Position numbers and translations under genes: made by a program. DNA of 40,559 bases from a virus. Lineage: Duplodnaviria > Heunggongvirae > Uroviricota > Caudoviricetes. The stretch lies in the IMG/VR virus record IMGVR_UViG_2541047813_000005, positions 1 through 40,559 of that record; one strand, given 5' to 3'. Position 1 is the first letter of the stretch. Each line of letters opens with the position of its first letter. The notes beneath the pieces were generated by a model. It did no database searches. It saw only the letters and a list, made by a program, of their open reading frames with translations, and was not told where the DNA came from. Below, one piece after another: positions 25,766 through 35,196 of the stretch.

Positions 25766-26584
25766 ATGAAAAACTTCAAGGTAATTAGCATGTTTGAATC
25801 GTTTAAAGAGCTGTTTTTATCTACTGCCAATACTGCCGTGAATCGAGCCAAAAACCCTGTGCTTGGTGCTTTTGTTATGTCCTGGTGCGCCTTCAACTGG
25901 AAATCAATTCTTTATCTATTTTTTAGCAAATCAAACATAATAGATAAAATTTCATATATCTCAGATAACAGCACATGGAAAACTGTTATGTTTTATCCAT
26001 GCTTATCTGTAATTGCTATCTGCTGCCTATTACCATGGGTAAACAATATCATTAACGTATGGCAAGCAAAGCCTCTTGATAATAATGACTCAATCGAAAA
26101 TCACCTGAAGGCAAGAAAAATCCAGCGTGAAACCAGACTGCAGAGGTTATTGGCTAAAAAAGATGTTACATACGACAAAGTTAAGACTGGCGCGGAAAAA
26201 GACATCCAAGAGATGAAAGAAGAGATTATTCGATCAAAGAATAGTATGGGGGAATTGACTGCCGAGTTGAAAGCTAAAGATGACGAATTGAGATCCGCCA
26301 GTGCTCAGTTAGCAGCTCTAAATCATTCATTAAAAGAGATATCGGAAACTCTGGGAAGAATGAATGAGGCATATAAGACCCTCCAAAATGATTTCGACGA
26401 ATACAAACTCAAATACCCTGAAAAATCTCAAATAAAAAGCCTTGCACTTGGCAACGGCCAAACAATTAGCAACTTTTTGGAGCAACACAACTTATCCGGA
26501 TTAAAATCTGGTAAGCCAAACGTTTTTAATAACTTTGGTGTTCTATCTGGATTATCAGGTTTCGATGATAAAAATAAAGACTAA
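25766..26584 (+). CDS. Cargo (moron) protein: N-terminal hydrophobic/membrane region plus long coiled coil; function unknown, candidate exclusion/abortive-infection factor
   Basis: ORF 25694..26584, probable start ATG 25766; AT-rich codon usage unlike flanking late genes; opposite strand; stop overlaps terL stop convergently. Confidence 0.5.
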   Translation: MKNFKVISMFESFKELFLSTANTAVNRAKNPVLGAFVMSWCAFNWKSILYLFFSKSNIIDKISYISDNSTWKTVMFYPCLSVIAICCLLPWVNNIINVWQAKPLDNNDSIENHLKARKIQRETRLQRLLAKKDVTYDKVKTGAEKDIQEMKEEIIRSKNSMGELTAELKAKDDELRSASAQLAALNHSLKEISETLGRMNEAYKTLQNDFDEYKLKYPEKSQIKSLALGNGQTISNFLEQHNLSGLKSGKPNVFNNFGVLSGLSGFDDKNKD

Positions 26585-28056
26585 GCATATGGATCGTACT
26601 CGGTAAGCGACTTGCCTTGCTGGTTCTGCTGCCCGGGAATTCGCAGACGCTTCGACACAGGGAACGCAAACGTCAGCAGTAGCGCATCGCCTTTACCAGG
26701 AGAACGCCCAAGCCGCTCTTTGATATCTTCCTTCGGTTCGATAACGATTTTACCGTCCACGCGAACTTTGTACTCTGCCGCCGACAGGTCGTCCGCTGTT
26801 TCCTGGTCATCCAGCATGCCGCCCAGCCTCAGCCATGTCTTGCATGAGTTGAACATCTCCCCACGCTTGTTGAGCATCTGCGGGTCAGTAGACGCGCCAC
26901 CGAACGGAACAAGTTGCCATGTGCGCCCCCAACCGTCACCGATTGACTTCAGCCCGGTACCGTAACCGAAGTCGATGAACACCGCGTCAGCCTGATACTT
27001 GTCTTCAAAGTCAGCGATACGCTTTGCCATAATCAGATCGTCAGTGGTCTTGTTGCCGGTCCACAGCACCTTACTGTGCAGCCCCTGCCGCAGGTATATC
27101 ACAGCGTCATCAACGCCGGAGTATGCCGGGTCAACGCCGATTATCACCGGAGCATGTGCAACCTGCGCAGCGGTTACCACCCGTTTCATTGCCTCGTCAG
27201 TAAGGCCGGTAGGGATAAACTGCAATTCAGATGCATCCGGGAATATACCGCGCACACGGATTTTAACGAAGTCGCTGTCTTCCCCGTAGTCATCAACCCA
27301 TTTCTGCAACTGCTGTTTGTTAGTGCCTTCCACCGTCCGGCTGTCAATCTGCGCAGTTTTCCAGCGGTGTTTATATTTGCGGAAACATTCGCGAAAACGC
27401 CCGGTGTTACGTGTAGGGTTTCCGAACGCCACCCAAATAATCTCAGTGTCTTCGTCCGTAAGCGCACCCTCGGCAACTTCCCACACCAGATCCGCAATGT
27501 TCGACGCTTCATCAAACACCACGATGATGCGTTTGCGCTCGTTGTGTAGTCCGGCGAATGCCTCGGTGTTGTGCTCAGACCAGGGTATTGCGTCAGCCCG
27601 CCACCGCTTGTCGTGCCCTAGGTCATTGCTGTACATCGCGGTAGCGGTACAGGTAAACCAGTCTTTCGTGATAGCAAGGTTCGACCACTTGATAATTTCC
27701 GGCCAGGTCTTCGTTCGTAGCTGGTTGTCGGTGTTGGCGGTCACCACGACCTTACAATCCTCGCAAGTGGACATGCCCCAGTTGATCAGCATTGAGATGA
27801 ATGCGGATTTACCAATACCGTGACCAGAAGCGCGTGCCAGCATAAGCGGCTGATAGCGCGTCTCTGGATTCTGCAGGTGATCACGTATCTCTCGGAACGC
27901 ATCGGCCTGCCACTGACGTGGACCGGTGGCATGTGCCAGTTCAGTCCCCTCTTCCCCCCACGGGAACGCATAGAGGGCATAACCAAGCGGATCGTGAGTG
28001 AACCCTGCAATATCCTCGATCAACTGCTCTTCAGGAGATAACGCTGTATCTTTCAC
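26581..28056 (-). CDS. Terminase large subunit
   Basis: 491 aa; ATPase-like N-terminal region and nuclease-like C-terminal region; overlaps terS stop by 4 nt. Confidence 0.8.
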   Translation of the reverse strand: MKDTALSPEEQLIEDIAGFTHDPLGYALYAFPWGEEGTELAHATGPRQWQADAFREIRDHLQNPETRYQPLMLARASGHGIGKSAFISMLINWGMSTCEDCKVVVTANTDNQLRTKTWPEIIKWSNLAITKDWFTCTATAMYSNDLGHDKRWRADAIPWSEHNTEAFAGLHNERKRIIVVFDEASNIADLVWEVAEGALTDEDTEIIWVAFGNPTRNTGRFRECFRKYKHRWKTAQIDSRTVEGTNKQQLQKWVDDYGEDSDFVKIRVRGIFPDASELQFIPTGLTDEAMKRVVTAAQVAHAPVIIGVDPAYSGVDDAVIYLRQGLHSKVLWTGNKTTDDLIMAKRIADFEDKYQADAVFIDFGYGTGLKSIGDGWGRTWQLVPFGGASTDPQMLNKRGEMFNSCKTWLRLGGMLDDQETADDLSAAEYKVRVDGKIVIEPKEDIKERLGRSPGKGDALLLTFAFPVSKRLRIPGQQNQQGKSLTEYDPYA

Positions 28057-28649
28057 TGATTACCATCCTGACGTTCTTTGAGTCGCTTCCTGGCTGCTGC
28101 TATGCGATCAGCAATTGTCACATTCACATTAACATCCAGACGTTCTTTGAACGCGTTGACATCAACATGCTTACCAATCAGTTCGAGGTTCTTCACCTTG
28201 TCAGGCCATTTAATTTTTTTGAGGATTGTCTCTATCGAATCCTCGTTCATGTTCATGATGGTCGATGACAGATCAAAGCCACTAAGCGTAGTGCGCCAGA
28301 TTTTCGGCCACTCGCGGATTGGCTTAAGGCTCCCATCGTCGTTGAGGATGTCGATCACGTCCATCTGGTCGATCTCCACCAGGCGCATGAGAACGTAATC
28401 AGCACTGACGCGCATTCGTTTGTTGCGCTCCTCCATCAACTCGGCAATCCGTTTTTGAATGCGTTCATCGCGCATCATGACACTGGCTTTAACTGCCGCT
28501 GTATTTGGGGAGAATCCTGCGTTAATCGCTGCCTGAGTCTGGTTTTCAGGCGTTTTGATGTATGACTGGCAATAAGCCTCCTGCATTGCTGTTAGTGGCT
28601 TAAATTGCGTTGATTTGCGTTTATAGGTTTTAGGTTCAGCAGGCATCAT
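28053..28649 (-). CDS. Terminase small subunit
   Basis: ORF 28053..28745; likely start at internal Met (28649); 'AINAGFSPNTAAVKASVMMRD' resembles terminase small-subunit DNA-binding region. Confidence 0.65.
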   Translation of the reverse strand: MMPAEPKTYKRKSTQFKPLTAMQEAYCQSYIKTPENQTQAAINAGFSPNTAAVKASVMMRDERIQKRIAELMEERNKRMRVSADYVLMRLVEIDQMDVIDILNDDGSLKPIREWPKIWRTTLSGFDLSSTIMNMNEDSIETILKKIKWPDKVKNLELIGKHVDVNAFKERLDVNVNVTIADRIAAARKRLKERQDGNQ

Positions 28650-28758
28650 AACCACCGTGGTAATAGTTACCGTTGTGGTAATAGTACCATGCAAAATAAA
28701 GCCGCCATAGTTGGCGGCAGTATTCAAAACCATCAAATTCATCATGCATAATCTACTC

Positions 28759-34611: not shown

Positions 34612-35196
34612 ATGAAAAGTATCCAGGACGTCCGCAGGCAAAATCTCAACGACTTGATCGACCGTGAATTCAATGGTGTTCAGACGCGGATGGCAGAAAA
34701 ACTTGGAACTCAGGCAAATCTGGTAAACCGCTGGGCTCTTGGCAAGAAGGTTATCGGCGACCAGGTTGCACGAAAAATTGAAGCTGCCGCCAATAAACCC
34801 CGTAACTGGCTTGATATCGATCGCTCGCTTTCTCAGGAAGGTTTTCAGCCTGTCGGCCCAAGCGACATTGGTCAGCTGGCGGCTCACAACCTGGAACGCT
34901 GGATGAGCGAAAGCCGCGACCTTTCAACGCAGGGAAAACTTCACCGCGCATCCGGCGTCGCCCAGGTGACAATCAGCCGCCTGTTAAACAATGAGGTCAG
35001 CGTTTCCATTTCCACCCTGGAGAATGTTGCATCCGCATTCGGGCGTCATGGCTATGAATTACTGATTCACCCGCACGACCCTGCGACTATCAACTATGAC
35101 CGCTCGCGCTACGCATTGTTACCCGAAACCGAGAAAGCAAAGATCGAAAGTTACATTGAATTTGTCATCAACCAGAACGAAAAAAACAAACAATAA
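34612..35196 (+). CDS. Repressor-like DNA-binding protein with two HTH-like regions (candidate phage repressor)
   Basis: 194 aa; 'QTRMAEKLGTQANLVNRW' and 'ASGVAQVTISRLLNNE' HTH-like segments; no obvious S24 peptidase motif. Confidence 0.55.
   Translation: MKSIQDVRRQNLNDLIDREFNGVQTRMAEKLGTQANLVNRWALGKKVIGDQVARKIEAAANKPRNWLDIDRSLSQEGFQPVGPSDIGQLAAHNLERWMSESRDLSTQGKLHRASGVAQVTISRLLNNEVSVSISTLENVASAFGRHGYELLIHPHDPATINYDRSRYALLPETEKAKIESYIEFVINQNEKNKQ

Follow-up and report, generated by a model that had tools for sequence, protein, structure and literature searches.

A strand-opposed accessory gene beside terL in a Uetakevirus prophage of Escherichia coli encodes a predicted membrane-anchored coiled-coil protein with an exchangeable C-terminal module

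The DNA analyzed here, referred to as the window, is the 40,559-nucleotide stretch of IMG/VR virus record IMGVR_UViG_2541047813_000005, and judged by its sequence it is a Uetakevirus (epsilon15/phiV10-like) prophage of E. coli. Our subject is a single gene in this prophage, hereafter the cargo gene, which runs tail to tail against the gene for the large terminase subunit, terL. The plus-strand open reading frame (ORF) at positions 25766-26584 exists as first described in an initial annotation of the window, and its stop codon TAA (26582-26584) overlaps the stop codon of terL (CTA on the plus strand, 26581-26583). The gene and its immediate setting are as follows.

25731..26578, plus strand: cargo cassette of 848 bp, DNA without a counterpart in phiV10 and TL-2011b between common flanks
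25778..25782, plus strand: Shine-Dalgarno-like AAGGT, seen in the sequence 8 nt before ATG 25790
25790..26584, plus strand: cargo coding sequence, 264 amino acids and stop, with the start ATG 25790 preferred over 25766
26581..28056, minus strand: terL, which converges on the cargo gene; the two tails overlap by 4 nt

The cargo ORF is a real gene under strong purifying selection and not a chance ORF. Across the N-terminal 160 codons, the dN/dS ratio is 0.06-0.09 in comparisons with relatives at 74-92% identity, and the identical ORF in an E. coli chromosome is annotated by PGAP as a hypothetical protein (WP_021542590.1). A word-indexed search identified 177 close homologues, all of them named hypothetical and all from Enterobacteriaceae. 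The composition of the gene is unlike that of the surrounding phage genes, as is characteristic of morons: the GC content and the GC content at third codon positions are 0.367 and 0.37 in the cargo gene, 0.547 and 0.62 in terL, and 0.518 and 0.58 in the portal gene. The description of an AT-rich ORF on the opposite strand that overlaps the terL stop is confirmed. The codon AGA accounts for four of the eight Arg codons in the AT-rich cargo gene and for none in terL and the portal gene. The tRNA-Arg(UCU) in the same slot decodes AGA.

The true start of the gene is almost certainly ATG 25790, 24 nt downstream of 25766. In an alignment of nine cassettes, ATG 25790 is invariant, while ATG 25766 is confined to the window and the allele nearest to it. 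The latter codon sits 2 nt past a conserved -10 hexamer and is therefore probably located upstream of the transcription start. The resulting length of 264 residues is that of most homologues, and the alignment to the matching PHROG profile begins at residue 9 of the 272-residue form. Thus, the protein of about 270 residues proposed initially holds as an ORF but not in its start.

Both flanks of the cargo gene match phiV10, TL-2011b and the O157 typing phages at 94-98% identity, while the gene span itself is unmatched, and BLAST comparisons with phiV10 and TL-2011b place the cassette junctions at 25730 and 26579. The equivalent slot contains gp03, a protein of the Phage_gp49_66 family (Gp49_66), in phiV10 and an unrelated ORF of 115 amino acids in TL-2011b. 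Since these two phages hold different genes between identical flanks, the cargo gene is accessory and occupies a variable slot; it is present in some and absent from other close relatives between conserved flanks, which is the distribution expected of a moron. In E. coli genomes, the slot beside the tRNA is filled by a “Gp49 family protein” or by assorted hypothetical proteins, some of which (234, 246 and 283 amino acids) are other alleles or distant members of the cargo family. Of 5426 complete E. coli genomes, 37 contain cargo DNA identical to that of the window. The gene is absent from phiV10, TL-2011b and epsilon15, which have other cargo, and it is encoded on the strand opposite to the morphogenesis genes, unlike what is expected of a virion structural protein. 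Because many Uetakeviruses lack the gene, its product is not a virion component, and the finding that would have spoken against the initial annotation, namely homologues that are virion structural components, was not borne out.

The initial description of two N-terminal hydrophobic segments and a long coiled coil was reproduced both in Kyte-Doolittle profiles and in a structure predicted with AlphaFold2 (AF2). In the 272-residue form, the hydrophobic segments are located at residues 31-53 and 69-101, with Kyte-Doolittle peaks of 1.2 and 2.15. The AF2 run was based on a deep, diverse alignment and on the 264-residue form, to which the residue numbers below refer.

25856..25924, plus strand: hydrophobic helix 1, spanning residues 23-45, which contains the family motif NPxxGAFxxSWxxFNWK
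25925..25984, plus strand: loop, about 20 residues long, that includes a short amphipathic helix (AF2 helix 50-60) and is predicted to be periplasmic
25985..26059, plus strand: hydrophobic helix 2, spanning residues 66-90, in which P70 and P82-W83 are conserved and with which the long helix begins
25976..26413, plus strand: single predicted helix of 146 residues, residues 63-208, in which the AF2 transmembrane segment runs on into a coiled-coil stalk
26270..26581, plus strand: exchangeable C-terminal module, residues 161-264, composed of the distal coiled coil and a low-confidence tail ending in KNKD

The predicted structure contains helices at residues 2-20, 23-35, 37-45, 50-60 and 63-208. 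The AF2 confidence score (pLDDT) is 94-98 over the last of these and 85.9 on average for the protein, with low confidence from about residue 216 to 264. The protein is accordingly modeled as a two-helix hydrophobic hairpin, the second helix of which would run on as a stalk of about 20 nm. Among 13 relatives at 62-75% identity, 67 of the first 160 alignment columns are invariant, and each of the residues R19, P23, G26, N36 and W37 is shared by at least 90% of a diverse set of 138 family members. In the same set, the hydrophobic segments average 1.6 and 1.5 on the Kyte-Doolittle scale, and the net charge averages +0.9 in the N-terminal tail, -1.0 in the loop of 20 residues and +1.9 in the stretch of 20 residues behind helix 2. 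By the positive-inside rule, these charges suggest that both termini are inside and the loop outside, which would place the stalk in the cytoplasm. A cytoplasmic stalk is also supported by one member (protein P0209 of locus L103) that ends in a GerE/LuxR-type helix-turn-helix (HTH) domain fused to the membrane domain and the coiled coil, since such a domain must be cytoplasmic. This member, which is encoded on a contig of only 935 bp, may be a membrane-tethered transcription factor.

The first approximately 160 residues of the protein are conserved, and the last approximately 100 residues form a module that alleles exchange. For example, the N-termini of the window allele and a 274-residue allele are 92% identical and their C-termini only 29-33% identical; the terL proteins of the two phage backbones are 96-97% identical. 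In total, 176 close relatives were sorted into 29 C-terminal types (clusters at 40% identity) and 13 N-terminal types (clusters at 85% identity), and a single N-terminal type was paired with 16 different C-terminal types. The dN/dS ratio within one C-terminal type is 0.11-0.26, which indicates that the tips are constrained and not decaying.

A profile of the N-terminal domain retrieved 2532 cluster representatives (clustered at 50%) at E<=1e-3, of which 378 were retained at E<=1e-10. Nearly all of them are 220-350 amino acids long, with the domain at the N-terminal end. The window protein is a member of phrog_4780 (E 6.3e-137, residues 9-272 of the longer form against profile positions 1-267 of 275); phrog_4780, phrog_13369 and phrog_35327 are all annotated as “unknown function”, and the membership therefore adds no mechanism. 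In none of the 138 diverse members is the domain covered by a Pfam model, and scans against Pfam and NCBIfam (E<=10) gave only sub-threshold matches to coiled coils and none to a Sie, Imm or Cor family such as SieB (PF14163). Likewise, none of the 138 matched a known superinfection-exclusion family. The best matches in PADLOC-DB v2.0.0 (DndD, PbeC, LmuB and JetC; best E 1.8e-5) align the coiled coil to SMC-like coiled coils. A profile search of the sequences in the PDB identified no relatives, and a fold search returned only generic helices. No informative C-terminal domain was found by Pfam in the 10 longest relatives, and the GerE fusion was the only one among the 138 members. A literature search for the protein accession and the PHROG identifier gave no results. 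Remote-homology searches and structure prediction, both recommended in the initial annotation, thus yielded a long single helix and no characterized relative.

The genomic contexts of the close relatives were examined in 68 loci on viral contigs. Most of these have a Uetakevirus terL immediately downstream, tail to tail, and the portal gene upstream. A minority are located elsewhere, in the nin region of lambdoid Klebsiella phages and in an SSU5-like phage-plasmid, each antisense to its neighbors. Five loci with non-Uetakevirus backbones (L046, L049, L051, L052 and L058) retain a fragment of 78-150 amino acids from the 3' end of a Uetakevirus terL beside the gene, which indicates that the cassette was exported from a Uetakevirus. 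The ORF is shortened to 62, 100 and 201 amino acids in three of the 68 loci. Among the distant members that were sampled, one is located in another Uetakevirus-type slot between terL and the portal gene, and others are found in two P2-like prophages, between gpA and the portal gene. This position is the gpA-gpQ hotspot of P2, which holds old, tin and several validated defense systems (PMC9122126). Distant members are also present on Klebsiella plasmids, adjoining a TacA/TacT-type toxin-antitoxin (TA) pair and an operon for a cyclic-oligonucleotide-based antiphage signaling system (CBASS). In one of these (L089; plasmid pM186-2, 5001-5309), the family copy is cut by IS1 after about 100 codons and adjoins a DUF1778/GNAT (TacAT-type) pair and a CBASS operon with SAVED, nucleotidyltransferase and ThiF components; the IS1-cut arrangement recurs on many IncF/IncH Klebsiella plasmids. 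Further distant members are located beside an Rhs toxin, in one phage-like region and in one non-phage region. The family is phage- and plasmid-borne, horizontally mobile and uncharacterized.

The cassette contains a putative promoter of its own, preceded by two terminator-like hairpins and overlapped by a palindrome that recurs in the window.

25587..25622, plus strand: intrinsic-terminator-like hairpin downstream of tRNA-Arg, identified by a consensus scan (14-bp stem, then a T run)
25707..25730 (hairpin 25707-25722), plus strand: second terminator-like hairpin GCCCGG-TTCG-CCGGGC followed by T7, identified by the consensus scan, directly upstream of the cargo promoter
25736..25764, plus strand: putative cargo promoter of sigma-70 type, ATGACC-17-TATAAT, the best match in the region (10 of 12 positions)
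25747..25761 (TTACC-N5-GGTA at 25748-25760), no strand assigned: palindrome TTACC-N5-GGTA(T), which lies within the promoter spacer and reaches into the -10 element; predicted repressor operator
8184, 25131, 25748, 28668, 32168, 32230, 34158, 34543, 35255 and 35318: the ten copies of the palindrome (A)TTACC-N5-GGTAA(T)

The -35 and -10 elements are conserved in all nine aligned cassettes, which represent Uetakevirus, lambdoid and Klebsiella contexts, and the second hairpin is also kept upstream of the cassette in other contexts. The consensus scan identified no terminator after the cargo ORF, which ends within the terL stop, and transcription of the cargo gene therefore converges on terL.

The motif TACC-N5-GGTA is present in 10 copies in the window versus 0.18 expected, a number that was reached by no shuffle. 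Copies are located between or beside an HTH repressor gene (34612-35196, Pfam HTH_3) and its divergent neighbor, and further copies precede a DUF1064 gene, terS and the tRNA unit (25131). Most of them are placed just downstream (mostly 10-15 nt) of an intrinsic terminator. There are 10 palindromes at equivalent regulatory positions in phiV10, plus sites before int and near the Bro/antirepressor operon. In the RefSeq record of epsilon15, ATTACC-N5-GGTAAT sites are present at the corresponding positions and carry the label “protein_bind, repressor, lysogeny”; the same motif was confirmed in their sequences. The palindrome in the cargo promoter is retained in 65 of the 68 cassettes on IMG/VR viral contigs, despite proteins that have diverged to about 50% identity, and is absent upstream of the gp03 cargo of phiV10. 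Outside Uetakevirus, the palindrome of the cassette is an orphan (L014) or decayed (KO-TP1). With a predicted operator in its spacer, the Uetakevirus cargo promoter is probably controlled by the prophage repressor, and the gene would be silent in the lysogen and expressed upon induction or infection. The classification as a moron in the initial annotation is supported by the variable slot and the foreign composition, but expression in the lysogen is doubtful. More broadly, the scattered palindromes suggest a P1-like operator network that spans most transcription units of the prophage, and the promoter of the tRNA likewise bears a copy of the palindrome.

Antisense, AT-rich hotspot cargo that encodes a membrane protein is a familiar kind of gene, but we found no description in the literature of this family, of its design with a stalk and swappable tips, or of its repressor wiring. 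Like SieA of P22 and Imm of T4, the cargo product is a small phage protein, predicted to reside in the inner membrane, that is dispensable for the assembly of virions and is encoded at an accessory site. Imm, too, is made in the course of the lytic cycle. The cargo protein differs from both in that it shows no sequence similarity to them and has a predicted cytoplasmic coiled-coil stalk of about 170 residues with exchangeable tips. ZorA of the Zorya system is a membrane motor subunit with a long cytoplasmic coiled-coil tail, and the cargo protein has a comparable arrangement of an N-terminal membrane part and a long helical tail that could signal between membrane and cytoplasm. However, it has no MotA/ExbB domain, no match to the Zorya models in PADLOC and no ZorB-D partners, and it is 264 rather than about 700 amino acids long. 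The i-spanin Rz is another phage-encoded protein in which an N-terminal membrane anchor is followed by a coiled coil. In contrast to Rz, the cargo protein contains two hydrophobic helices and a stalk predicted to be cytoplasmic, and it is encoded outside the lysis cassette. The list of ORFs contains no lipoprotein ORF of the kind expected for an i-spanin, either embedded in or adjacent to the cargo gene, and the phiV10 record places Rz/Rz1 elsewhere in the genome. The gene resembles old, tin and the Rst systems, which are cargo of the gpA-gpQ hotspot of P2 (PMC9122126), as a single AT-rich gene with alternative alleles in a fixed slot. Unlike the Rst systems, its product matches no PADLOC model, those for Rst included, and the family was not seen among the tested systems in the part of PMC9122126 that was available.

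Three other leads were discarded. A kinship to the 2TM protein of the AC1 “2TM+1TM+TIR” system, raised by a common weak match to UPF0242, was rejected, as the sequence in Table S2A lacks the family motif and there is no link through PADLOC. The LF82 prophage Gally, which is reported to be moron-free by RNA-seq (PMC9928086), is P22-like and was ruled out as a bearer of the slot. A paper on neaT (PMC3573123) concerns an O-acetyltransferase located elsewhere in phiV10 and is not relevant here.

The cargo protein perhaps acts in inter-phage conflict, by exclusion or abortive infection, and we tentatively favor this interpretation because of the accessory-slot and hotspot contexts, the polymorphism of the tips and the purifying selection within tip types. 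A role in exclusion or abortive infection was also proposed initially; the P2 hotspot and the TA and CBASS neighborhoods make a role in conflict plausible, but the proposal gained nothing from homology to known families of exclusion, abortive infection or defense proteins. According to this hypothesis, a self-contained cassette was inserted tail to tail against terL, and its product would form a hairpin in the inner membrane, the two ends of which lie on the inner side, such that the stalk and the variable tip face the cytoplasm. The prophage repressor, bound to the operator between the -35 and -10 elements, would hold the gene off until induction or a new infection switches it on. The variable tip would then recognize a component of a competing phage or mobile element, and the membrane domain would either block the entry or development of the competitor or compromise the membrane in a manner similar to abortive infection. 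Several points weigh against a role in conflict. No likeness in sequence or fold to characterized exclusion, abortive infection or defense proteins was found, and we found no expression or phenotype data for the gene. Guilt by location is a weak argument, since accessory slots also hold anti-defense, toxin and fitness genes. The assignment of the operator is based on the annotation of a record and on the distribution of the sites, with no binding experiment found in the literature searched, and if the operator does work, a gene that is silent in the lysogen would be atypical of prophage exclusion and abortive infection genes. In a more far-reaching form, which we consider rather doubtful, the protein would represent a new single-gene class, in which a two-helix membrane effector or anchor, a rigid cytoplasmic stalk of about 20 nm and an interchangeable sensor tip are wired through the repressor to the lytic cycle. 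It is similarly doubtful that this class would provide lytic-phase exclusion or abortive infection with cassette-like switching of specificity across Uetakevirus, lambdoid, P2-like and SSU5-like phages and plasmids.

The main rival is that the gene encodes an early lytic protein for host takeover or anti-defense, the stalk of which neutralizes a factor of the host or of a resident prophage, such as a membrane defense complex, a protease or the division machinery. This is not a likely explanation in our view, and nor is its corollary that the variable tip tracks variable host targets, but it fits the predicted timing equally well as a role in conflict. The predicted operator puts the gene in one group with int, the antirepressor operon, the early operons and similar genes of lysis and induction, and a small, AT-rich and highly variable gene in an accessory slot, carried by several phage types and plasmids, is consistent with such a function. 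However, the operator is only predicted, there is no similarity to known anti-defense proteins, and some family members occupy sites, namely the gpA-gpQ hotspot of P2 and the neighborhood of TA and CBASS genes on plasmids, where defense rather than anti-defense genes have been validated. A classical moron for lysogenic conversion, expressed constitutively in the lysogen and providing superinfection exclusion at the inner membrane like SieA of P22, would account for the near-consensus promoter insulated by two upstream terminators, the foreign composition, the strand opposite to the late operon and the membrane architecture. In non-Uetakevirus phages, where the palindrome is an orphan or decayed, the promoter would indeed be unregulated. 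We nevertheless consider this reading unlikely, as the spacer palindrome kept in nearly all cassettes agrees with sites labeled as repressor operators, the large domain is predicted to lie in the cytoplasm and not in the periplasm where incoming ejection proteins arrive, and there is no homology to families of the SieA/SieB type. Least probable, and in our opinion very unlikely, is a membrane helper of the phage's own lytic program, for example in antiholin-like timing of lysis or as a tether for replication or packaging, which would be dispensable and replaceable by analogous cargo. The gene does adjoin the packaging genes, is predicted to be co-expressed with lytic genes and resembles lysis accessory proteins in its general architecture of a membrane anchor and a coiled coil. 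However, many close relatives carry unrelated cargo instead, the gene moves alone into unrelated phages, plasmids and chromosomal islands, and the extreme polymorphism of the C-terminus between near-identical backbones is hard to explain for a housekeeping role.

The remaining features of the locus are the tRNA gene of the slot and the neighboring phage genes.

25467-25543, plus strand: tRNA-Arg(UCU), identified by ARAGORN and Rfam, a constant part of the slot that precedes the cassette
24833-25039, minus strand: small ORF similar to gp3 of epsilon15
23139-24818, minus strand: portal gene
28053-28745, minus strand: terS

The tRNA-Arg(UCU) is found in most Uetakevirus loci, irrespective of the cargo. 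The cargo gene had initially been described as wedged between terL and the portal gene. The overlap with terL stands, but the portal gene is not the immediate neighbor on the other side, as the tRNA-Arg(UCU), a conserved non-coding element and the small ORF are located in between. The non-coding element is about 200 nt long (25218-25430, plus strand), lies upstream of tRNA-Arg and is annotated in phiV10 as a hypothetical gene on the minus strand (gp04). Besides Uetakeviruses, the element is carried by lambdoid phages, where it directly follows the repressor gene, by P1-like phages, where tRNA-Ile and ban flank it, and by Klebsiella and Stenotrophomonas phages. It also matches unannotated DNA in about 640 E. 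coli genomes at 80-90% identity. The element contains invariant blocks, such as GGUAGCCGGAAUGUGCAAG, and an RNAalifold analysis of 12 sequences predicted 33 pairs, six of which show compensatory changes. No match was found in Rfam 15, and a relationship to put of HK022 was rejected, as the only similarity was a 16-nt chance match in coding DNA. We consider the element a candidate for a new structured leader RNA of phage early operons. At the other end of the terminase genes, the terS ORF opens at 28745, and its first approximately 33 codons (28646-28745, minus strand; including TITTTVTITTVV) cover the palindrome at 28668-28680 as well as a hairpin resembling a terminator. Translation of terS probably starts at the methionines of MMPAEPK near 28649-28644, in agreement with the 197-residue terS of related prophages.

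If the role in conflict is true, the family would be a widespread and uncatalogued player in the competition between phages of Enterobacteriaceae, one that is missing from Pfam, NCBIfam and PADLOC. Its design would be tractable, as a conserved membrane module is combined with swappable tips, and specificity could be mapped in experiments that exchange these tips. An operator in the promoter of an accessory gene would, if confirmed, mean that not all antisense “morons” are expressed in the lysogen, which matters for how prophage cargo is read in genome scans. Whatever the function of the protein, the slot, with its tRNA-Arg, candidate leader RNA, terminators and variable cassette, is a hotspot for mining cargo in a common group of E. 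coli and Salmonella prophages.

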